Source of the DNA: Chlamydiota bacterium
GTDB lineage: Bacteria; Auribacterota; JACPWU01
NCBI GenBank assembly: GCA_016196885.1
Contig: JACPWU010000049.1
Coordinates: 1 to 31,185, forward strand
Direction of reading: 5' to 3'
DNA: 31,185 nucleotides
Notes under the pieces: model-generated
Told to the model about the DNA's origin: nothing
Seen by the model: only the letters and a program-made list of their open reading frames with translations
Databases searched by the model: none
Position numbers and translations under genes: made by a program
Shown: positions 1,998 through 30,745 of the stretch, in pieces
Numbering within the stretch: the first letter of the stretch is position 1
Layout: each line of letters begins with the position of its first letter

Positions 1998-3391
1998 ATG
2001 ACAACAAATAGAAAACAACTTCACGAAAGATTGTGGGCAGCCGCGGAACAGCTTCGTGCGAATTTCGGTCTTAAACTCAACGAAATTTCGGAACCTATTC
2101 TAGGTCTGATTTTTCTTAAATTTGCCGATGTGAGATTCAAGCGAGCCCAAACAAACATGGTTGCGGACCGAAAAGAGACCTATTCAACACGCCCGCGGTC
2201 AGTCACCCCCGATCACTATAAATCACAAGGCGTCCTGTATCTTCCTGAGATTGCCAGCTACTCGTATTTAATGAATCTTGCGGAAGACAAAAATATTGGC
2301 AAAGCGATCAACGAGGCGATGAAAGCCATTGAAGCCGAAAACAGCGATCTTGCCGGTGTCCTGCCTCAGGATTACACCGCGCTCCACAAAAAAGCGGATG
2401 AAAACAACAAAATCTTGATAACCCTACTCAAGAACTTCAATCAAATCCCCGACGATATCGAGGGTGACGCCTTCGGTGAAATTTACGAATATTTTCTCGG
2501 TGAATTTGCGCGCTCAGAAGGCGCTAAGGGAGGCGAGTTCTTTACAGCGCAACCTATTGTAAAGCTACTTGTTGAGATTATTGAACCCTATCACGGACGC
2601 ATCCTTGACCCGGCCTGCGGAAGCGGCGGCATGTTTGTACAGTCGGCCAATTTTGTGAAGTCGCATTCCAATAAGAAAACGCAGGTGATGAACGAAGTCG
2701 CGCTTTATGGTCAGGAAAAAGGCACTAGTAATATTCGAACAGCTAAAATGAATCTTGCCATTCATGGCCTATCCGGCAAAATTGCGGAAGTGAATTCGTT
2801 TTATGAAGACGCCTTTAATAGTGTTGGTACATTTGTACTTTGTACTTGCCAATCCTCCTTTTAATGTCAAAGGCAAAGACAAAAACAAGCAAATTGTCAT
2901 TGATCCAGCCCGTATCAAGGGAGACCCTCGCTACAACTTGGGTTTGCCCCTGACTGGCAAAAATGAAATCAGCAACGCCAATTACCTCTGGATGCAAATG
3001 TTTGCCAGCGCCTTAAATCCAAAGGGGAGGGCAGGTTTCGTCATGGCTAATTCTGCCAGCGATGCGGGTAATAAAGAAAAAGAAATCCGTCAAAAGATGG
3101 TGGATGCTGGCATGGTGGATGTCATTGTGTCGGTGGGAACAAACATGTTTTTGAATGCGACGCTTTCTTGCACGCTTTGGTTTTTTGATAAAGGTGGCGA
3201 CACTTGATGACATTCGCGTCAATGACTATTCTCTTAATCCCGGGCGGTATGTAGAGATCATCGAAAATGAAATGAGCGATGTGGATTTTGAAGCACGTAT
3301 GAAAGAACTTATGAATGAATTTACAGGCCTCACTGCCGAAGCCCATGAACTTGAAAATAAAATCCAGGAAGACTGGGAGAAAATTTTATGA
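1998..3391 (+). pseudogene. hsdM: Type I R-M methyltransferase subunit HsdM, disrupted (7-bp duplication frameshift plus internal deletion)
   Basis: Motif I DPACGSGGMF lies in ORF 1998-2864 and motif IV NPPF in ORF 2803-3207, a different frame. The C-terminal NDYSLNPGRYV lies in a third frame (3155-3391). TTTGTAC is tandemly duplicated at 2832-2845. Confidence 0.85.
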
Positions 3392-3528
3392 AAAATAAAA
3401 TGATCGTGTCAGGTAAAGCGGAGTACGGAGCGCTGTTGGGAAAGGATTTTCTGTCGATAATCTTGAAAAAAGGTATCAACAATAAATCCCTTTTCTTTTT
3501 TTGAAGGGTTGATAATTGAGGTATTGAA

Positions 3529-4476
3529 ATGAAACTCGAACAAAAATTTGATCGGCAATTTTCGGAAATCGTAAGAATGATCCGCGAGGCTCGGTATCAT
3601 GCCATAAAAAGCGTGAATGCCGAGCTTGTAAAACTTTATTGGAGCATTGGTGAATATATCAGCAAGAAACTTTTATCTGCTGAATGGGGTGATGCTGTTG
3701 TGGATAGACTCGCCGCTTTTATCCAAACTAACCATCCTGAATTTAAAGGGTTTACCCGCCGCGGCCTTTATCGAATGAGGCAGTTTTATGAAGCTTACTG
3801 TCAAACTGAAATAGTGTCACCACTGTTGACACAAAAGCATCCCAAAGTGCCTGAGGTATTTAAGGACATATATGTTCTTGATTTTTTGAATCTGCCAGAA
3901 GCCCATAGCGAGAGCGATTTAAGCTGGAGTATTGTTGCAAACCTCAAAGATTTTATTCTTGAGTTCGGCAGGGACTTTACCTTTGTCGGTCAGGAATACC
4001 GAATTCAGGTCGGAGGAAATGATTATTTCATCGATCTTCTCTTTTTTCATCGAGGCCTCAAATGTCTAGTGATGGTTGAACTGAAAATAGATGATTTCAA
4101 GCCCGAATACCTGGGCAAACTGAATTTCTACCTCGAAGCGCTTGACCGGGACGTACGTAAACCGGACGAAAACCCGAGTGTAGGCATTATCCTGTGCAAA
4201 TCAAAGAACGAGGAGGTTGTGGAATACGCCTTAAGCCGTAATCTATCGCCCGCACTCGTGGCGGAATACAAGACAAAACTTATCCCCAAGCAAATTCTTC
4301 GTAAAAAACTCCACGAATACTTTTTGCTGGCCGCTCCTGAAAAGGAACAAATCATTCGCGAAGGCGGTCACGTGGCCGACAAAGCCCGCGTTGAGATTGA
4401 AAAACAGACGGGGGAAAGTGTGATTACGGGTATGCGTGCTCGCAAACTTTCAGAAAAAGATGGACGGAAAAATTAA
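3529..4476 (+). CDS. DUF1016/YhcG-type PD-(D/E)xK nuclease-family protein, possibly internally shortened
   Basis: N-terminal ARYHAIKSVNAELVKLYWSIGEYI and core FVGQEYRIQVGGNDYFIDLLFFHRGLKCLVMVELK match my recollection of the family. The segment between SPLLTQ and KDIYVLDFL looks shorter than typical members. Confidence 0.7.
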   Translation: MKLEQKFDRQFSEIVRMIREARYHAIKSVNAELVKLYWSIGEYISKKLLSAEWGDAVVDRLAAFIQTNHPEFKGFTRRGLYRMRQFYEAYCQTEIVSPLLTQKHPKVPEVFKDIYVLDFLNLPEAHSESDLSWSIVANLKDFILEFGRDFTFVGQEYRIQVGGNDYFIDLLFFHRGLKCLVMVELKIDDFKPEYLGKLNFYLEALDRDVRKPDENPSVGIILCKSKNEEVVEYALSRNLSPALVAEYKTKLIPKQILRKKLHEYFLLAAPEKEQIIREGGHVADKARVEIEKQTGESVITGMRARKLSEKDGRKN

Positions 4477-4568
4477 AATTTCAAGATTCAAATACCGGAG
4501 CCAAAATACGGGTGAAAGCCTAACGAGCAAATTGTGAGAATGGCTTATAATTTTAATGGAGAGGACTC

Positions 4569-5266
4569 ATGAATAAAGAAGAAAATTCCAGAATTGTTTT
4601 ATATGCCGATCCCGATGGGCAGATAAAAATTGATGTGCGATTTCAAGGTGAGACCGTTTGGCTTTCTCAGCCGCTGATGGCTGAGTTGTTTCAAACAACA
4701 AAACAGAACATAAGTCTGCATATTAAGAACATTGTCGAAGATGGTGAGCTTGTAGAGACTTCAGTTGTCAAGGATCTCTTGACAACTGCTGCTGATGGCA
4801 AATCGTATAGTACGAAGTTTTACAACCTGGATATGATTATAGCCGTTGGATACCGGATTAAATCGAGAATAGCTACGCATTTCCGGCAATGGGCAACCAA
4901 GGTCTTGCGTGAATACATGATTAAGGGTTTTGCCATTAATGATGAACGTTTAAAAAGCGGTTGAATCTTATCGTATCCATGTATCTCGATTATGCCGAAC
5001 TTCAGGCGGAGAACCAAAAAACAATGACCATGAAAGACTGGTCAATCAAACTGGATGCTTTCCTGCGTTTTAATGAAAAAGATGTCTTAACCAATCCTGG
5101 AAAAGTATCGGCCGAAGTGGCAAAAGAGCTTGCGGAAAAAGAATTTCAGAAGCACGAGGATAATTTAAAGAAGATCGAAGCGACAACGCCGGTCAGCGAT
5201 TTTGACAAACTGGTTGAGAAGACAAAACAGATTGGGAAAAAGGAAGCTAAAAAAAAGAAGAAGTAA
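4569..5266 (+). pseudogene. rhuM: RhuM-family gene with a large internal deletion and frame change
   Basis: The N-terminal third (ORF 4569-4964, ...IKGFAINDERLKSG-stop) and the C-terminal part (ORF 4961-5266, NLIVSMYLDYAELQAEN...) are in different frames. The central region expected for the family is absent. Confidence 0.7.
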
Positions 5267-5268
5267 CG

Positions 5269-5397
5269 ATGAGTATATATGTGGCCAGCAAAGCCCGCGC
5301 TGAGATCAAAAAAATGGGGGAAAGCGTGATTACAGATATGCGTTATGCGCTTTCGGAAAAGAAACCTGTGAAACCTTCTAGGAGAAAAATTATTTAA
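5269..5397 (+). pseudogene. 42-codon ORF that duplicates the C-terminal tail of the 3529-4476 product
   Basis: MSIYVASKARAEIKKMGESVITDMRYALSEK... parallels HVADKARVEIEKQTGESVITGMRARKLSEK at the end of ORF 3529-4476. The DNA segments 4372-4460 and 5281-5362 are visibly similar. Confidence 0.45.
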
Positions 5398-5410
5398 GTA
5401 CGTGGACTAA

Positions 5411-6460
5411 AAAAAATTAGGAGACATCTATCAATTTCAATATGGAAAGGGTAATACTAATCCAGACAATGGCGGGGTTTACCCTGTTTACGGAGCAGGA
5501 GATATAATCGGTTATTTCAATGAATATAACGGTGAAGATTCACCTGTAATAGGACACATAGGAGCGAATTGCGGTAAGGTTGTATTTGGAAAGGGTAAGC
5601 ATTTTGTTACTTATAATGGCGTAATGGCTTCAATAAAAAATGGTAATAATTCACTTTTTGGGTATTACACTCTATTAAGCAAAAATTTGACTAGATTAGT
5701 TAGGGGCAGCGCACAACCGTTTATTTCATATGATTTGCTGAATAATGTCGATATCTTCTTGCCAGATATAAACTCTCAGGGGAAAATTGCCTCTATCCTC
5801 TCTGCCTACGACGACCTGATTGAAAATAACGAAAAGCGCATCAAGGCGCTCGAGGAAATGGCCCAGCTTCTCTATACCGAATGGTTCGTAAAATTCAAAT
5901 TCCCCGGCCACGAAAAAGTGAAAATGGTTGATAGTAAAACTGAATATGGCCTTATCCCTGAGGGGTGGGCGATTGGTAAATTGGGAAATATAGCTAAAAT
6001 TATAAGCGGATATGCTTTTAAAAGTTCAGATTTTCAGAAAACCGGAATACTTGTGATAAAAATTAAAAATATTGAATTTGTCGATCAGCTCTTTGAGAGT
6101 CTTGTCGCCTTGGCAAAGGATTTGAACGAAGAGGAGCGGCGTGCGGTAAAAGAGAGCTTGAGCGAGGATGAATTGGCTATTTTTGATCTTCTGGTGAAAG
6201 AAAATCTAAATCCGAACGAAGTGGCCCAGATTAAAGGCGCGGCGCATGAACTTCTTTTAAATCTTAAACCCCTTCTTGTATCGCATTGGAGAGATTTTGA
6301 GACAAACCGCGCAGGAGTGAAAGTCACTATATTTGATTTATTATTGGATAAATTGCCGGAACCTACCTATACAGAACAAGATTGCAAACTAAAAGGTGTT
6401 GAAGTTTACAACTTTGTGTATGAACATTACTGGGACGCACAAAGTTTGGCGTGCGCTTGA
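5411..6460 (+). pseudogene. Fusion remnant: start-less HsdS (TRD1, central conserved region, start of TRD2) joined to the C-terminal domain of HsdR
   Basis: The frame opens after the TAA at 5408 with KKLGDIYQFQYGKGN and no start codon. The HsdS central motif ILSAYDDLIENNEKRIKALEEMAQLLYTEWFVKFKFPGHE is present. From about 6075 the sequence switches to HsdR C-terminal-type sequence (LSEDELAIFDLL...WRDFETNRAGVKVTIFDLL). Confidence 0.75.
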
Positions 6461-24419: not shown

Positions 24420-24839
24420 TTAGAAGGGAACCCTCTTTAAAAAAGAGTATTTTGAAAAATCAGAATCATGGGTAAAAATCTCTTTAATCCCGTTGTAACG
24501 TAAACAAAGAGCGATCCTTGCATCAAAGATCTCATTACCCCGCAAGGCTGGAATTTCATCCAAGAGGGTTTTAAGGTCCATCCACCAATCTTCAGATTCT
24601 TCCAGAATTCTCACCTGAAATCCCTCAATCCACTTTTTCATCAAATCAATTGCATGATCTAGGTCCAAAGGGAGGGGGAAGACTTTGCTGTGGGTGAGAA
24701 GTCTCAGGGTTTCTGCGATGTTGGTGTGAGTAGTCGCTAAAGGTTTTCGATTTTTCGAGAACCAATGCTGAACTTGAGAATGATCCTTCTGGGATTTAAC
24801 CAGAAAATCAATAATAACGTTGGTATCAAGGGCAATCAT
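24420..24839 (-). CDS. vapC: PIN-domain toxin VapC
   Basis: MIALDTNVIIDFL N-terminus (PIN acidic residue), with THDSDF near the C-terminus. The ATG overlaps the vapB TGA (ATGA). Confidence 0.8.
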   Translation of the reverse strand: MIALDTNVIIDFLVKSQKDHSQVQHWFSKNRKPLATTHTNIAETLRLLTHSKVFPLPLDLDHAIDLMKKWIEGFQVRILEESEDWWMDLKTLLDEIPALRGNEIFDARIALCLRYNGIKEIFTHDSDFSKYSFLKRVPF

Positions 24840-25069
24840 GTATCTAAAAAATCTATCCAATCCCGGCTAGATTTGAGATTGACTCGAGAAGGGCCACCCA
24901 GATCCACGGGTTTTACATCACGCGTCGGACTCTTTTTTTGATGCTTAAGAGATTCCCATCCGACTCTTGCCCAGAAGCTAATGGTTTCACTTAACGTTTT
25001 TCCCTGCCTCTGTGCTTCTCGTTGAGCAGCCCGAAAGAGATGGTCTTCAATGATCAAGCTCGTTTTCAT
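24836..25069 (-). CDS. vapB: VapB-type antitoxin
   Basis: 77 aa. The N-terminus MKTSLIIEDHLFRAAQREA is typical of small antitoxins. It is translationally coupled to vapC. Confidence 0.7.
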   Translation of the reverse strand: MKTSLIIEDHLFRAAQREAQRQGKTLSETISFWARVGWESLKHQKKSPTRDVKPVDLGGPSRVNLKSSRDWIDFLDT

Positions 25070-25197: not shown

Positions 25198-25626
25198 CTA
25201 TTTTTCAAAAGCTCCCATTCGCTGTTTAGATTTTTCAAACAGGGCGAAAATTGCTTTGGCAAAAGTGTTTTTGATCAGAAGGGAAATTTGAGAAGCTTGA
25301 TCATCCGAATAAATATGAACAATTTCATTTCTCTTTTTAACCATCAGTGGGAAAATCTCTTCGTGCTTGGCATCAATCCATTTTAAATTAAAGGCCTCTT
25401 TGAAAGTGCTCAAAGGAGATGCAGTTTCAATGCCTTCTTCTAGAAGCAGTTCCTTGACAAATTTCCAAAGGCTTTCAAAAGTATACTCGAAACGCTTGGT
25501 TGAAATTTCGACCCAAATATCCTTCTCAAATTTTGCCTCGAAGTCGGATTGAAGGGCTTCTTTTAGTTTTGTGATCGCCGCTTCAAGGGTTTGATAAGAT
25601 CTCTGCAGTTTTTTCCGGTATGCCAT
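25198..25626 (-). CDS. hepT: HepT-type toxin (HI0074 nucleotidyltransferase substrate-binding family)
   Basis: 142 aa with an RX4HXY-type motif (RNEIVHIY). Confidence 0.8.
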   Translation of the reverse strand: MAYRKKLQRSYQTLEAAITKLKEALQSDFEAKFEKDIWVEISTKRFEYTFESLWKFVKELLLEEGIETASPLSTFKEAFNLKWIDAKHEEIFPLMVKKRNEIVHIYSDDQASQISLLIKNTFAKAIFALFEKSKQRMGAFEK

Positions 25627-25922
25627 AGTTCAATCTCCTGGGATGCTTCTTCCCTTACCTTTTCGTCTAGGGTTCGAAAATCTACAAAATCTATTTTCCT
25701 GAGTGTAGCGATATTATTGTTGAGCTCTTCCTCAACTTCAAGAAAATCCTTGGGTTTAATGTCGTAACGGCACAAAATGCCAATATCCATATCAGAGCTT
25801 GAGATGGCGTTTCCAACAGCATGGCTACCAAACAGAAAAACAACACACTCTTCTTTTTTAATTTTTTTGAAGATAATGTTCAGAATATTTTTCCTGTATT
25901 TTTGATAGGGAAGGGATTTCAT
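25563..25922 (-). CDS. mntA: MNT-type minimal nucleotidyltransferase antitoxin
   Basis: GSHAVGNAISSSDMDIGI (GSxxxGxxxxxSDxD motif). Its 3' end overlaps hepT by 64 nt. Confidence 0.8.
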   Translation of the reverse strand: MKSLPYQKYRKNILNIIFKKIKKEECVVFLFGSHAVGNAISSSDMDIGILCRYDIKPKDFLEVEEELNNNIATLRKIDFVDFRTLDEKVREEASQEIELWHTGKNCRDLIKPLKRRSQN

Positions 25923-25993: not shown

Positions 25994-26097
25994 AATTCAC
26001 CCGAATCTTCCCAAACACGTGGAATGAAGTCACCTTGACATAGACTTTTTTCCCAACCCCGAAGCCACTTTCGTGGGCGACGCCTTTGGGGATTTGG
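25994..26097. repeat. 104-bp direct repeat, copy A: orphan duplicate of the cysA 3' end
   Basis: 103/104 identical to 27031-27134. The only mismatch is 26007 C against 27044 T. Confidence 0.9.
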
Positions 26098-26292
26098 CAT
26101 CAAATTATGTAATAATGTTGTTAAAATGACACCATATCCTATTGCTTTCGAATAGGTTTTGAAACCCAAGCTGATTACTCTTGAATTTCTTGTTAAAGAA
26201 GTGTTATGTTGCTCCTATAGGATATAAAGGTTCCGCCTCGATGACAAGGGCCCATGGGGCCCTCTCGAAAGAGTAGTCGGGGCGGTCGCTTT

Positions 26293-26973
26293 TTAGTAAT
26301 AGTAAGTCTTGCCCATTTTAAAAATATCGAACTCGCTTTTTACAGCTGCTTGAATAAGTTGATAAGACCTCGTATCCGTGCCTCCCCATTTTCTAAAAAC
26401 AGCCCAGTTCAAATAATCTACGATTTGTAAGTCATAGTTTGATTGTGATGGGTGGTGGAAGATGTAATATGTAACTGATGCGGGTAGCTTATTTGCAAGC
26501 ACCATTTTGATAGCTTTTTCAATAGCTTTTCTCTTTTTCTGAACTGGAATACTGTCTGTAAAGACGATCACTCTCTCAAACTCATTTAAGTTGTAATTTT
26601 TGAAGACATAAGAGAGAAGATATCCCAACATCTCTGGATAAAACCTTTCTTCTTTTTGCAAAGAAAAACCTGTTTTTCTTTTTTCAACAATAAGACTGTC
26701 AATCCTAGTCTCGTGAAGGTTGAATTCAATAATACTAAAAACAGAATTTCTAACGGCCTGACGGTCTTCTGATGCATGGAAGTACGCTATTTCAGTTCCC
26801 AATTCAATCAGATCGTATTTTAATTCATTGAGGTTTTTATATGCCTCAAAAGGTCTTTCTTTGGAAAGAGCTGTAAGAGTAAAGTATTTTGTTCCTGTAG
26901 GAGAAAAGTCTAGATTTCCGCCTTCATCCAAGAATAGATAGAGAATGCGTTTCTTGTCTTGTTCCTCTAGCAT
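26293..26973 (-). CDS. DUF3800-family protein (function unknown)
   Basis: 226 aa. N-terminal ILYLFLDEGGN, mid YFHASEDRQ and C-terminal LQIVDYLNWAV match my recollection of the conserved acidic positions of DUF3800. Confidence 0.65.
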   Translation of the reverse strand: MLEEQDKKRILYLFLDEGGNLDFSPTGTKYFTLTALSKERPFEAYKNLNELKYDLIELGTEIAYFHASEDRQAVRNSVFSIIEFNLHETRIDSLIVEKRKTGFSLQKEERFYPEMLGYLLSYVFKNYNLNEFERVIVFTDSIPVQKKRKAIEKAIKMVLANKLPASVTYYIFHHPSQSNYDLQIVDYLNWAVFRKWGGTDTRSYQLIQAAVKSEFDIFKMGKTYYY

Positions 26974-27028
26974 TTTTGAACCTTTGTATTCGGAAGAATT
27001 TCAAAATGAATATCATCTCACCCACGTA

Positions 27029-28084
27029 TCAATTCACCCGAATTTTCCCAAACACGTGGAATGAAGTCACCTTGACATAGACTTTTTTCCCAACCCCGAA
27101 GCCACTTTCGTGGGCGACGCCTTTGGGGATTTGGGCGATCAGGATAAAATCACCGTCATTTAATTTAATGTGAAGTTCTTCCAAGGCGCCTAAGAAGCGG
27201 GTGGATTGAATGGTGCCTGGCACTTCGTCTTCTTTTTCTTTTTGAGATGAAACGTATACATCGATGGGCCGAAAAAGAACAGTGGCTTTGGTCCTTTCTT
27301 TTAAATTGGTTAGAGGGATAAATTTGAAAGGTCCCCATTCTACGAGCCCATGCCGAACCATTCCCTCCACGCGATTGGTTTCTCCGACAAAAGTAGCCAC
27401 AAAGTCAGTGGCCGGTTCATTAAAAATAGTTTTCGCAGAGGCATCTTGCTGAATGGCCCCTTGATGAATCACCAAAATCCGGTCCGAGAGTTCAAAGGCC
27501 TCGTCCTGATCATGGGTGACCAAGAGGGTGGTGAGGCCCACTCGATCATGCAATTTTTTAAGCCAGGAGCGAAGCACCTTGCGAAGCCTCGTATCCAGGG
27601 CGCCAAAAGGCTCATCCAAAAGCAGCAATTTAGGTTCGGGCGCCAGGGCTCGTGCCAGAGCGACTCTTTGACGTTGGCCTCCTGACAATTGACTGGGCAT
27701 TCTTCCTTCAAACCCAGTTAAACCGACCAACTCCAGAAGTTGTTTTACCTTTTCGTCGCGTTCTTTTCGAGGAATTTTGCGAACCTTGAGTCCAAAGGCG
27801 ATATTTTCAAAAACGGTCATGTGCTTGAAAAGCGCATAATGCTGAAAAACAAATCCCACATTGCGTTCTTCGACCGGGATGTGAGTCACATCTTCGCTAT
27901 TGATCATGATTTGTCCCGAACTTGGAATTTCAAGACCTGCCACACATCTTAAAATAGTGGATTTACCGGATCCTGAAGGTCCCAGGAGTGAGACAAATTC
28001 ACCGTCCTCGACGGAAAATGAAACGTCATTGACGGCTTTAAACCCATTAAAATGCTTATGAAGATGTTGAACAGAGATACTCAT
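27029..28084 (-). CDS. cysA: Sulfate/thiosulfate ABC transporter ATP-binding protein CysA
   Basis: Walker A GPSGSGKST, signature LSGGQRQRVALARAL, Walker B LLLDEP, and a C-terminal TOBE-like domain. Confidence 0.85.
   Translation of the reverse strand: MSISVQHLHKHFNGFKAVNDVSFSVEDGEFVSLLGPSGSGKSTILRCVAGLEIPSSGQIMINSEDVTHIPVEERNVGFVFQHYALFKHMTVFENIAFGLKVRKIPRKERDEKVKQLLELVGLTGFEGRMPSQLSGGQRQRVALARALAPEPKLLLLDEPFGALDTRLRKVLRSWLKKLHDRVGLTTLLVTHDQDEAFELSDRILVIHQGAIQQDASAKTIFNEPATDFVATFVGETNRVEGMVRHGLVEWGPFKFIPLTNLKERTKATVLFRPIDVYVSSQKEKEDEVPGTIQSTRFLGALEELHIKLNDGDFILIAQIPKGVAHESGFGVGKKVYVKVTSFHVFGKIRVN
27031..27134. repeat. 104-bp direct repeat, copy B (last ~34 codons of the intact cysA)
   Basis: See copy A. 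This copy is contiguous with the rest of cysA. Confidence 0.9.
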
Positions 28085-28890
28085 ATTTTTTTATTTTTCC
28101 TCCACAGTTCTAAAAGGAATCGTCCTGCGAGTGACAAGGCAATGAGGACAACAGCGCCCGTGTAAGCCTCTTCCATGTGAAAATCAATGTAAGCATCATA
28201 AATATAAATGGGCATGGTTTGTGTCACCCCCGAAATGTTTCCAGAAATAATTAAAATGGCGCCAAATTCACCCAGAGCTCTGGAAAATGAAAGGGAAATC
28301 CCGTCTATGATTCCTTCTTTGAGAGAAGGAAGGGTCACCCATCGTAAGGTTTGCCAGCGGGAGGCGCCCAAGGTACGAGCCGCATCCTCCGCTTCTCGCC
28401 CAAGCTCTTCAAGCAAAGGGCCCACTTCTCGAATGATAAAGGGAAGGGTCACAAAAACAGTTGCCAAAATCATTCCGGGAAGTGCGAAGACAATTTTAAT
28501 TCCAAGCGGATCTAAGAGAGCACCTAAAAGTCCTCGGGGCCCATAAGTGCTCATAAGGGCAAAGGCACCAATGGCTGCGGGTGCTGCAAAGGGTAAATCC
28601 ACAAGACCGTTTAAAAATTTTCGCCCAAAAAATTTGTCTCTGACGAGGGTAATAGACGTTAAAATGCCTAAAGGAAGGGTGATCAAAAGAGAAAGACTGA
28701 CCACAAGACCTGTGTTTCTCAAGGCACACAGGGCATAATGAGTGGTTGAAGAGAGATAAAAAGTTTTTAACCCCGGCTTAAAAGCCTCCCACAAAAGATA
28801 AAAATTTGGGAAAATCAGCAAAACAAAAAGATACACCAGTGTGATGACAATCAGTAAAAATTTGATTAAATTTTTAGATTTTTTCTTCAT
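28081..28890 (-). CDS. cysW: Sulfate ABC transporter permease CysW
   Basis: Permease with an EAA loop (EDAARTLGASRWQT). The ATG at 28890 overlaps the cysT TGA (ATGA) and has GGAGGA upstream. Confidence 0.85.
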   Translation of the reverse strand: MKKKSKNLIKFLLIVITLVYLFVLLIFPNFYLLWEAFKPGLKTFYLSSTTHYALCALRNTGLVVSLSLLITLPLGILTSITLVRDKFFGRKFLNGLVDLPFAAPAAIGAFALMSTYGPRGLLGALLDPLGIKIVFALPGMILATVFVTLPFIIREVGPLLEELGREAEDAARTLGASRWQTLRWVTLPSLKEGIIDGISLSFSRALGEFGAILIISGNISGVTQTMPIYIYDAYIDFHMEEAYTGAVVLIALSLAGRFLLELWRKNKKI

Positions 28891-29708
28891 GGGATCATCC
28901 TCCTTTCCAGAGGGGCCTCGAAAAATCTCATGGTCCAAAGTAAAAGATAGGAAAGAAGGAGAACAACCACGGAGGCCGAGGCTGCTCCTTGAAAATCAAA
29001 TTGTTCAATTTTTGAAAAGATGTAGGTGGCTGCAACCTCTGTATGAAAAGGTTGTGTGCCGGCTACAAAAACAACAACCCCAAATTCACCTAGGGAACGT
29101 GCAAAGGTCAGCACAGCGCCCGAAATGATACCTGGGCGTATGACGGGGAAAATCACAGAAGTGAATATTTTAAACGGTCTTGCACCGAGCGTAATGGCTG
29201 CCTCTTCTTCTGTCGGATCGATCGAGCGCAAAAGGGGTTGAACAGAGCGAATGACAAAGGGGAGAGTTACAACGAGAAGCGCGATATAAATGGCAGACGG
29301 TTGATAAAGAATTGTAAAACCGTGGGTTTGTAACCAAGCTCCCAGGGGAGATTTTGGGCCTAGGAGTAGAGCGAGTGTCAGTCCAATGACCGAGGTTGGG
29401 ATGGCAAAGGGGAGATCAATCAAGGGATCAATCCATTTACGACCTGGAAATTTAAACCTGACCAATGCAAAGGCGCTGATCGTTCCCAAAATGATATTGA
29501 TTACAGTGACGATTCCGGCGGCCATGAAAGTGAGTCGAAACGCATAAAGGGCTTGAGGGTCTGTGAGAGATTGCCACAATTTAAGAGGTCCGTCTCTAAC
29601 GGCTTTAGAGAAAATCATGCCAATCGGAAGCGCGATGACGCTCCCTATATATAGGAAGACAAATGTGCGCTTCAGATAAGGGCCTGTTCGAGAAGAGCGC
29701 GGGGTCAT
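28887..29708 (-). CDS. cysT: Sulfate ABC transporter permease CysT
   Basis: Permease with an EAA loop (EEAAITLGARPFK), located between sbp and cysW. Confidence 0.85.
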   Translation of the reverse strand: MTPRSSRTGPYLKRTFVFLYIGSVIALPIGMIFSKAVRDGPLKLWQSLTDPQALYAFRLTFMAAGIVTVINIILGTISAFALVRFKFPGRKWIDPLIDLPFAIPTSVIGLTLALLLGPKSPLGAWLQTHGFTILYQPSAIYIALLVVTLPFVIRSVQPLLRSIDPTEEEAAITLGARPFKIFTSVIFPVIRPGIISGAVLTFARSLGEFGVVVFVAGTQPFHTEVAATYIFSKIEQFDFQGAASASVVVLLLSYLLLWTMRFFEAPLERRMIP

Positions 29709-29731
29709 ATCATGGTCACTCCATTCACCGA

Positions 29732-30745
29732 TTATTCCTTCCTTTCAGTGCGAACAATTTTTTCCCAGAGAGACCCGGGACCAAAAAATTCTTTGTCTAC
29801 CTTGGGCCATCCACCCAAGAACTCAATGTCAAAGGCGCTAGAAACTTCAGGATAGCGAGACGCATATTCCTTTTCAATATTTTTGTCAATGGACCTAAAT
29901 CCCCATTCTGACAAAATTCTTTGGGCTTGCGCCAATCTCAAGAATTCAACGAAGGCTTGAGCCACATCCTTCATCCCATGTTTATCGGCATAAGCATCTA
30001 CCACTGCGGCTGGATTTTCAACATAAATGGTAGAGGAAGGAGTGACGAATTCGATAGATTTTCCATACTTACGAAGAAGAAGTGCTTCGTTTTCGTAGGT
30101 AATCGCCACGTTACCGACCCCTCGCTCAAAATCTTGAATCGAGGCCCGTGCATTTTCAGCAAACGTGACCACATTTCGATAAAGAGCACGTAAGGCTTTT
30201 TCGGCATCTTCTGGAGAGCCTCCGTTCTTGAGAATGGCTCCATAAAGAGCCAGCACATTCCATCGAGCCCCTCCCGAGGTTTGTGGATTGGGAGTCAGCA
30301 CCTTCACACCCCTTTTCAGAAGGTCTGGCCAATCTTTTAAATTCAAAGGATTCCCGGGTTCCACTCTGAAGACCACCACGGATTTAGAAACGATTCCGTG
30401 TCCACTGGCATTCCAATCATGGGTGATGAGCCCAGATTTTTCAATGGAGTTGACATCGGACCAGAGTGATAAATAAACCACATCCGCATCAAGACCCGAA
30501 ATCACATTTCGAGCTTGGGTGCTAGAGCCGCCCCAAGAAAATTGAAATTCAATTTCTTCTCCAGAATGTTCTGCCGCCCATTTCTTGAAAAACGCAGGGC
30601 CAATCTCTTTTTCAATGGCCTCTCCTGGAGTAGAGTAGCCGACTAAAAATAACTTTCTTTTTTTAGAAGCCTCTTCTCCTTGAGCAAAAATAAAGGTATT
30701 GAAGAGCAATGCAAAACTTAAAAAGATAAGAAATTTCTTTTTCAT
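29732..30745 (-). CDS. sbp: Sulfate/thiosulfate-binding protein (Sbp/CysP)
   Basis: Signal peptide, then SWGGSSTQARNVISGLDADV and PNPQTSGGARWN, motifs typical of sulfate-binding proteins. Confidence 0.85.
   Translation of the reverse strand: MKKKFLIFLSFALLFNTFIFAQGEEASKKRKLFLVGYSTPGEAIEKEIGPAFFKKWAAEHSGEEIEFQFSWGGSSTQARNVISGLDADVVYLSLWSDVNSIEKSGLITHDWNASGHGIVSKSVVVFRVEPGNPLNLKDWPDLLKRGVKVLTPNPQTSGGARWNVLALYGAILKNGGSPEDAEKALRALYRNVVTFAENARASIQDFERGVGNVAITYENEALLLRKYGKSIEFVTPSSTIYVENPAAVVDAYADKHGMKDVAQAFVEFLRLAQAQRILSEWGFRSIDKNIEKEYASRYPEVSSAFDIEFLGGWPKVDKEFFGPGSLWEKIVRTERKE

Follow-up and report, generated by a model that had tools for sequence, protein, structure and literature searches.

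Insertion with long target duplication (Nobusato et al. 2000; Furuta, Abe & Kobayashi 2010, PMC2853133) leaves a foreign gene between direct repeats of 46–423 bp, with no mobility gene. The repeats are single-copy in the empty allele, often overlap the 3′-end of a host gene and are linked to restriction-modification (R-M) genes, and the mechanism is not known (PMC2853133). DUF3800 proteins, recognised by DE and QxxD motifs (PMC7736814), are accessory proteins of retrons and of Cas12 and Cas13 loci and have been called RNase H2-like (PMC7736814, PMC10910872), and eleven unrelated RNA motifs, whose function is not known, lie beside DUF3800 genes (Weinberg et al. 2017, PMC5737381). No established function for the family was found in the literature. 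The locus described here lies in a 31,185-nt stretch of DNA from a Chlamydiota bacterium (the window), in which a 933-bp segment, designated U, is located between two copies of the 3′-end of cysA and carries a DUF3800 gene followed by a structured element. We lean towards the reading that U is a horizontally acquired module, composed of a DUF3800 gene and a small RNA (sRNA), that was placed by recombinase-free insertion with long target duplication. What is new is a further DUF3800-associated RNA motif and a phylum-spanning cargo for this type of insertion; examples of both kinds are already known.

The locus shares with the published cases a foreign gene, repeats longer than 30 bp (104 bp in the window) and the lack of a mobility gene. 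No integrase or transposase domain was detected among the open reading frames (ORFs) of the window that were scanned with Pfam or with precomputed contig tables, which is most but not all of them, as the original prediction had stated from the sequence alone. The published cargo consists of R-M genes in a few proteobacteria, cyanobacteria and actinobacteria, whereas the cargo found here and in related loci includes the DUF3800-sRNA module, RhuM, HipA-like and ORF6N genes in many phyla, and the duplications hug start and stop codons.

The direct repeat is 104 nt long, with copy A at 25994–26097 and copy B at 27031–27134, and the copies are identical at 103 of 104 positions. Both are on the reverse strand. 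Copy B consists of the last 34 codons of an intact cysA gene and the first base of its TGA stop codon, while copy A is an orphan cysA 3′-end that lacks the cysA body and is followed by AG, giving a TAG stop. The cysA gene (27029–28084, reverse strand), which predicts a protein of 351 aa with ABC_tran and TOBE_2 domains, is intact despite the duplication and is the last gene of the cysPTWA operon (27029–30745). The repeat boundary is therefore the first base of the stop codon, TGA in the intact gene and TAG in the orphan. The sole mismatch within the repeat is at position 14 (26007 C in copy A and 27044 T in copy B) and is synonymous, affecting a Lys codon (AAG/AAA on the coding strand). All three differences between the copies, this single nucleotide polymorphism (SNP) and the TGA/TAG stop, fall within the 16 nt adjoining the cassette. 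A third copy is not present elsewhere in the window, where the chance expectation is 0 matches. The arrangement of the repeat pair had been proposed in the original prediction and is borne out by alignment and by a contig assembled from raw reads (see below), and a single mismatch in 104 is in keeping with the recent event that it envisaged.

The inserted segment U (26098–27030, reverse strand) opens with a leader of 57 nt, continues with the DUF3800 ORF and the structured element, and closes with an AT-rich tail of 128 nt. Its GC content is 36.4%, lower than that of the window (43%) or the cys operon (45%), and this composition is foreign. Neither the leader nor the tail gave a meaningful match when compared by blastn and tblastx with 80 related loci and with the rest of the window. 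The DUF3800 gene (26293–26973, reverse strand), encoding 226 aa, is the sole credible gene in U, and an earlier assignment made from motifs alone thus holds. The predicted protein matches Pfam PF12686 (E = 2.5e-10; 41.7 bits against a cut-off of 21), with residues 12–195 aligned over all of the profile (positions 1–149 of 149). The N-terminal DE (D16 E17) and C-terminal QxxD (Q183..D186) motifs of the family are present, and residues D16, E17, D92, E97, D140, H173, H174 and D186 are invariant in an alignment with 35 homologues. The conserved acidic residues that would be expected of a member of this family (D16, E17, D92, E97, D140 and D186) are all included. PADLOC assigned the protein to DUF3800_VII (E = 2.7e-8), the DUF3800 protein of type VII retrons.

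An AlphaFold model of the protein, built from the 35-homologue alignment, has a pLDDT of 85. The top PDB matches in Foldseek were RNase HII (2dff, E = 1.3e-4) and human RNase H2A (3puf, E = 1.4e-3), with TM-scores of only 0.38–0.48, and terminase nucleases and Argonaute PIWI domains were found lower in the ranking. The modelled fold is RNase H2-like, in agreement with the published descriptions of the family, and a nuclease activity on RNA-DNA hybrids would be expected of an enzyme of this type.

Homologues are full-length, 55–77% identical and are distributed over more than 10 phyla. The hosts include Chlamydiota, Omnitrophota, Planctomycetota, Verrucomicrobiota, Elusimicrobiota and Nitrospirota, as well as Desulfobacterota, Syntrophales, Acidobacteriota, Gamma- and Alphaproteobacteria and others. 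Homologues in cultured isolates are located in the chromosome of Actomonas aquatica and in conjugative plasmids of Phaeobacter piscinae. Viral carriage is rare, with 5 matches among 2.9 million viral contigs, and the relatives in Gordonia phages are only 26% identical.

The most conserved part of the cassette is the structured element. It occupies the 62–68 nt behind the stop codon and shows 80–97% DNA identity across about 80 loci from more than 10 phyla, exceeding the conservation of the coding DNA. In the window, the element (26226–26287, forward strand, antisense to the DUF3800 gene) is 62 nt long and consists of a 9-bp stem, P1, enclosing two hairpins, and is followed on the forward strand by TTTTT at 26290–26294. 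An alignment of 78 copies revealed the same arrangement of an outer 9-bp stem around a short hairpin and a 7-bp hairpin, with invariant bases (GACC and GGAACCTTT) to either side of the hairpins. In this alignment (A2), compensatory double changes are seen at 15 of the 19 base pairs, and paired cells make up 98.4% of the total. These values were not reached in any of 500 shuffles, and the signal was lost when the partners were slid relative to one another. A covariance model derived from these copies recovered exactly one copy per DUF3800 locus, including loci outside the training set and the two cultured strains, and no copy in about 45 cysA control loci. The region had been recognised in the original prediction as a GC-rich multi-hairpin 3′ region, which is correct as far as it goes, but that it is a conserved, covarying three-helix RNA element was missed.

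Several features point to the strand on which the element folds. Cells that are not Watson-Crick pairs would be C-A on the sense strand and G-U on the antisense strand, and G-U pairs on the antisense strand outnumber those on the sense strand by 19 to 2. The folded molecule is therefore most likely antisense to the gene. A U-run follows the outer stem on the antisense strand, seen as a mirror A-run in 53 of 78 loci, and was judged by eye to be a possible terminator of the sRNA. A scan for promoters and terminators near the element returned no promoter on the forward strand and no terminator, and the promoter-like matches were confined to the sense strand. The element is probably a small RNA transcribed from the forward strand, antisense to DUF3800, with its strand, ends and expression predicted from the sequence. 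The AT-rich tail between the element and copy A (26098–26225, reverse strand) varies in sequence and is not conserved across loci, though at least 40 nt of tail are always present behind the element, and it may hold the sRNA promoter.

Within the element, a sigma-70-like arrangement, TTGTCA-17 nt-TATCCT, is found on the reverse strand at 26219–26247. TTGTCA is nearly invariant across loci, and could be part of an outward promoter or could merely represent nucleotides of the RNA junction. In three Verrucomicrobiota loci, a stretch of about 100 nt is common to the tails (L052:3745-3850, L073:4862-4970 and L059:6776-6830) and includes a possible micro-ORF of 9–12 codons (MxTTFSG..RP).

The closest described RNA is DUF3800-IX (RF02968), which in L017, one of the related loci, is located behind the stop codon of a DUF3800 gene on the opposite strand, as deduced here for the window element, and is of similar size (about 67 nt against 62 nt). 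In this RNA an outer stem encloses two hairpins, the junction reads UA(G) and the molecule closes with a U-tail; the topology is the same here. However, the window element is not matched by any Rfam model, with no DUF3800 motif hit at E ≤ 1 in a search of 4.5 kb or at E ≤ 10 in a search of 181 nt, and it accompanies a distinct and tightly conserved protein subfamily. The Rfam scan was able to recover RF02968 in L017, at 58 bits. The gene concerned is a second, different DUF3800 gene of this locus (L017:3010-3733), and the DUF3800-IX RNA adjoins the stop codon with no intervening gene, in the opposite orientation. A copy of a methyltransferase 3′-end lies just upstream of this second gene. The window element is best seen, from its sequence and structure, as a further DUF3800-associated RNA motif, which would make it the twelfth RNA partner of the family.

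The limits of the cassette were examined by comparing related loci. DNA similarity between loci begins at or just inside the ATG of the DUF3800 gene and ends 67–96 nt past its stop codon, at the end of the element. Loci that share upstream context diverge directly past the element, and loci that share a downstream hsdR gene diverge at the ATG. The distances to the flanking repeats, where these occur, are not constant. The upstream repeat is 5–340 nt from the ATG, or 691 or 1840 nt where other genes are included, and the downstream repeat is 131–290 nt from the stop codon where this could be cleanly measured (L006 was left out because of an N-gap). The insert has no constant end points with respect to the conserved core. 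The ATG in 16 of 79 loci (L004 to L082, considering upstream ORFs of at least 60 codons) overlaps the upstream stop codon as ATGA, and in L066 the repeat takes in the first codons of the cassette ORF. Together these overlaps suggest that the cassette is expressed through translational coupling to the preceding host gene.

Short contigs of about 1 kb that contain homologues were considered as markers for the cassette ends but were rejected, as they end inside the element or have a coverage of 1. Two of these (L084:804-860 and L086:892-934) terminate 44 nt past the stop codon, inside the element, which is probably an assembly break at a sequence that several cassettes of the sample have in common.

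Roughly a quarter to a third of the related loci are inside R-M operons, consistent with the stress or defence context that had been suggested from the neighbours in the window. HsdR is the downstream neighbour in 14 of 75 loci and HsdS the upstream neighbour in 10 of 76, and methylases and helicases are also found, while the remaining loci, including the window, adjoin housekeeping genes. Phage_integrase accounts for 1 of 75 downstream neighbours in a tally of Pfam families. Accessory genes such as prrC, rlo, RhuM and YhcG are similarly wedged between hsdM or hsdS and hsdR in R-M loci. The window cassette differs in being located beside cysA and toxin–antitoxin (TA) pairs and not inside an R-M operon.

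In the 80 related loci, a search was made for direct repeats that enclose the DUF3800 gene, following the earlier suggestion to look for host gene-end copies at DUF3800 genes elsewhere. Such repeats, with a length of at least 50 bp, were present in 8 of 65 loci with at least 1 kb of sequence on both flanks, compared with 4 of 200 control positions shifted by 3–4.5 kb within the same loci (Fisher p = 0.002). When loci with shorter flanks are included, about 13 have flanking repeats. The repeats are 55 to about 340 bp long and 85–94% identical. HsdR 5′-ends are duplicated in L016, L020, L040 and L055, starting at the ATG or no more than 7 nt from it, and the 3′-ends of HsdM or methyltransferase genes are duplicated in L006, L066, L019, L026 and L017. 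In L054, the duplicated sequence is the 3′-end of a DRTGG-domain gene, and the boundary is on the first stop base with one TGA and one TAG copy, as in the window. Duplicated ends stop at, or within about 10 nt of, a start or stop codon, and the best match of each repeat copy across all of the data is the partner copy in its own locus. A literature search did not find anything specific on hsd gene-end duplications flanking inserted genes.

Some gene ends are present in more than two copies. HsdR 5′-end copies are found three times in L020 (L020:1432-4344) and four times in L040 (L040:3399-7119), a methyltransferase 3′-end four times in L017, and the 3′-end of an unidentified gene five times in L075 (L075:393-6925). 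The cargo between the copies in these four arrays includes HipA_2 with DUF3037, ORF6N and RhuM genes, a second DUF3800 gene and an ORF of 255 aa. The L075 array further contains a Bro-N gene, and in L016 an Nmad2 gene is inside the repeat-flanked insert. As other cargo is found between copies of the same gene ends, the duplication process is not tied to DUF3800.

These findings can be accommodated by the following sequence of events. Foreign DNA with arbitrary ends would have joined the chromosome while a stretch of the target, the last 104 bp of cysA, was copied, leaving the host cysA whole and the orphan copy on the far side of the insert. The joining could be carried out by host recombination or repair, involving a staggered break with fill-in, template switching, or one homology-anchored and one illegitimate join. 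Selection would then retain only those insertions that spare the flanking genes and permit expression of the cassette. An insertion into a tight operon survives only if both neighbours are intact, and duplication of a gene end achieves this. Once formed, the repeats would allow RecA-type homologous recombination to excise the cassette as a 1037-bp circle comprising U and one repeat. Such a circle could re-enter at any homologous gene end by the same recombination, and this would build arrays in other loci. Of the two routes put forward in the original prediction, a duplication-based mechanism fits this evidence, while insertion by a site-specific, trans-acting recombinase does not, given the variety of gene ends, repeat lengths of 55 to about 340 bp and unfixed junctions.

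Four observations do not sit easily with insertion by long target duplication. First, a boundary placed exactly on the first stop base, in both the window and L054, together with the recurrent ATGA overlaps (16 of 79), is more precise than would be expected of random joining. We propose only selection or microhomology as its explanation, and the precision of the junctions at start and stop codons remains notable and otherwise unexplained. Second, an empty site was not found in a metagenome scan with CysA, and the nearest cysA relatives are only 54–67% identical; the comparison with empty sites that had been envisaged for this locus gave no such allele. Third, divergence in L006 is concentrated beside the cassette, which is easier to reconcile with import together with a donor gene tail than with plain duplication in place. 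Finally, the source of the sequence is a metagenome-assembled genome (MAG), and a read graph at k = 31 is the same for the integrated form as for an empty site accompanied by a 1037-bp circle.

A further step can be imagined in which the host gene-end copies serve as portable 'homology att sites', with RecA, and no dedicated recombinase, building integron-like arrays of defence-type cassettes in R-M operons. This reading is possible but tentative, and it is ranked as likelier than mobilisation by the DUF3800 module itself. The resemblance to integron cassettes extends to units of about 1 kb that hold one gene and no promoter and have a folded element at their 3′-end, to structure on the bottom strand and to arrays between repeats. 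An integron cassette as such was rejected because the element is a three-way junction with no GTTRRRY or RYYYAAC box, and because the repeats between cassettes are coding sequence and not attC. IntI was not found among the window ORFs scanned.

The alternative that survives best, though we regard it as doubtful, is a Campbell-type entry, in which a repeat-U-repeat structure already existed in the population and a circle or fragment recombined with the resident cysA end, so that no new duplication arose in this genome. The location of all three differences between copy A and copy B in the 16 nt next to the cassette is in accord with this, although three differences are too few for statistics. 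In L006, the HsdM 3′-ends on either side of the insert (L006:5659-5998 and L006:7062-7504) are 91–93% identical over the distal 248 nt, but identity drops sharply inside the repeat, and in the approximately 92 nt adjoining the cassette likeness is seen only at the protein level. This has the look of a junction left by recombination within the repeat, such as a cassette brought in together with the tail of a donor gene might leave, and hints at a homology-anchored route. A gradient of this kind is clear in L006, L047, L075 and L055 and is absent or reversed in L016, L020, L040 and L066. Campbell-type recombination would also easily produce arrays of one gene end with varied cargo. However, under this route the first cysA-linked copy would simply have arisen in another strain, and a second cysA-linked cassette was not seen in the neighbour tallies of the 80 genome loci or in the few homologue contexts that were viewed individually, the flanks of the 5 viral loci not being part of this comparison. 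Exact-protein look-ups returned the same arrangement only, with no empty site.

It is improbable that the arrangement is an assembly artefact or a non-integrated form, with a single cysA end in the chromosome and U plus one repeat belonging to a separate circle or another strain and stitched in. The region analysed comes from a MAG (GCA_016178005.1, contig JACOUD010000001.1, Chlamydiae), the k = 31 read graph is equally compatible with both forms, and most k-mers would not span the 104-bp repeat, though a read pair is longer than it. Against this, the gene order around the cassette is identical in two assemblies. A Logan contig of 1007 bp assembled independently from raw reads (SRR12113387) matches window positions 26068–27074 exactly and so links the SNP to U. 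One end of the contig lies 30 nt inside copy A and the other 30 nt past the SNP of copy B, which is where a k = 31 graph would be obliged to branch if both the repeat and the SNP are real, and the repeat was therefore not made up by the MAG assembler. The same architecture, with diverged repeats that assembly cannot create, is seen in at least 12 other genomes that come from independent studies, and the presence of a cysA end on a 1-kb circle would already mean that an integration had come before. An integrated state is thus what the MAG assembly, the second assembly with the same gene order and the argument from the read graph together point to. Among the 11 nearest cys operons, none has a DUF3800 gene after cysA (0/11), which lends weak support to insertion, as these relatives are too distant for the site to be aligned.

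A route in which a recombinase gene elsewhere in the genome directs site-specific integration, the cysA 3′-end serving as attB and the cassette carrying a matching attP, appears very improbable. Duplication of a gene 3′-end is the classic footprint of integrase-borne islands, which use tRNA, tmRNA and protein gene 3′-ends and restore the gene that they enter; the window also contains a duplicated tRNA-Glu 3′-end (234–260 and 547–573), and only 31 kb of the genome is visible. The repeats described here are host-specific, however, and would require a new att site in each host. They involve unrelated gene ends of varied length and include 5′-ends, the junctions are not fixed, and no recombinase was detected among the window ORFs scanned. 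A 104-bp block of identity with no core motif common to the loci would also be atypical for att sites.

The least credible alternative, that an RNA-dependent nuclease composed of the DUF3800 protein and its RNA cuts gene ends and provokes long duplications, can appeal to an RNase H fold common to DDE transposases, RuvC-type nucleases and Argonaute PIWI domains, to the invariant acidic residues listed above, to a highly conserved RNA that abuts a variable stretch in a loosely guide-plus-scaffold-like manner and to breakpoints between related loci right at the element end and the ATG, but self-encoded transposition is made unlikely by the variable ends of U, which sometimes include other genes, and by DUF3800-free cargo in arrays of the same type, and is further opposed by the 57 of 65 loci that lack a flanking repeat and by the known role of the family as an accessory of retrons and Cas12/Cas13 loci and not as a transposase (PMC7736814, PMC10910872). 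If it were true, the unit of about 0.8 kb would be a new and very small class of mobile element distributed across bacterial phyla.

Whatever the route of entry, the conserved core suggests a possible function for the module. The pairing of an RNase H-fold protein with a small structured RNA across phyla, the placement near R-M and TA genes and the long retention between deletion-prone repeats suggest a ribonucleoprotein nuclease, either an RNA-partnered nuclease or a nuclease that is held in check by the RNA, with a putative role in defence or addiction. Gene content alone gives the module a likeness to RNA-antitoxin TA systems of types I and III, as a nuclease-like protein and a convergent small structured RNA are located among TA and R-M genes, and the pair persists despite flanking repeats that are prone to deletion. 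Type I toxins differ in being small peptides, and type III RNAs in being tandem repeats upstream of the toxin gene.

The widespread DUF3800 family is met repeatedly next to retrons, next to Cas12 and Cas13 loci and next to eleven RNA motifs that are unrelated, and the element described here adds a very clean RNA partner with strong covariation. The presence of the pair in the cultured A. aquatica and P. piscinae makes the question of how protein and RNA relate testable at the bench. The module is also linked to a poorly understood form of gene movement, whose gene-end footprint recurs across many phyla and sometimes forms arrays in R-M loci. If insertion with long target duplication is general, it would allow defence-type genes to enter operons without the help of a recombinase and with the operons left unbroken.

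The cassette is followed in the window by two TA pairs, all on the reverse strand. The immediate downstream neighbour is an MNT/HEPN-type pair (25563–25922 and 25198–25626; Pfam Polbeta and NTase_sub_bind), and beyond this is a VapBC pair composed of a ParD-like and a PIN protein (24836–25069 and 24420–24860; Pfam ParD_like, below the cut-off, and PIN).

The tRNA-Glu duplication is located in a repeat-rich region (179–618) at the other end of the window. The last 19 nt of the tRNA gene and the following 8 nt (234–260) are repeated perfectly at 547–573, 379–416 is repeated at 581–618 with 95% identity, and a long hairpin is present at 262–344. The duplication resembles either an att-like or a long-duplication scar, with about 130 nt between copies and no integrase nearby. 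Adjacent to this region are an AbiEi antitoxin-like gene (708–1499) and a short AbiEii-like fragment (1396–1767).

A decayed type I R-M locus occupies 1998–6460, where fragments of HsdM and one of HsdS remain together with a YhcG/DUF1016 nuclease gene and a RhuM gene that is broken into two ORFs. What is left of RhuM lies between direct repeats of about 66 nt (4372–4437 and 5281–5343; 55 of 66 positions identical) that correspond to the 3′ coding tail of YhcG, and this may be an older gene-end duplication of the same kind in this genome. Defence and addiction genes are thus abundant in the window, which includes the Abi pair, the R-M remnant, and the MNT/HEPN and VapBC pairs.

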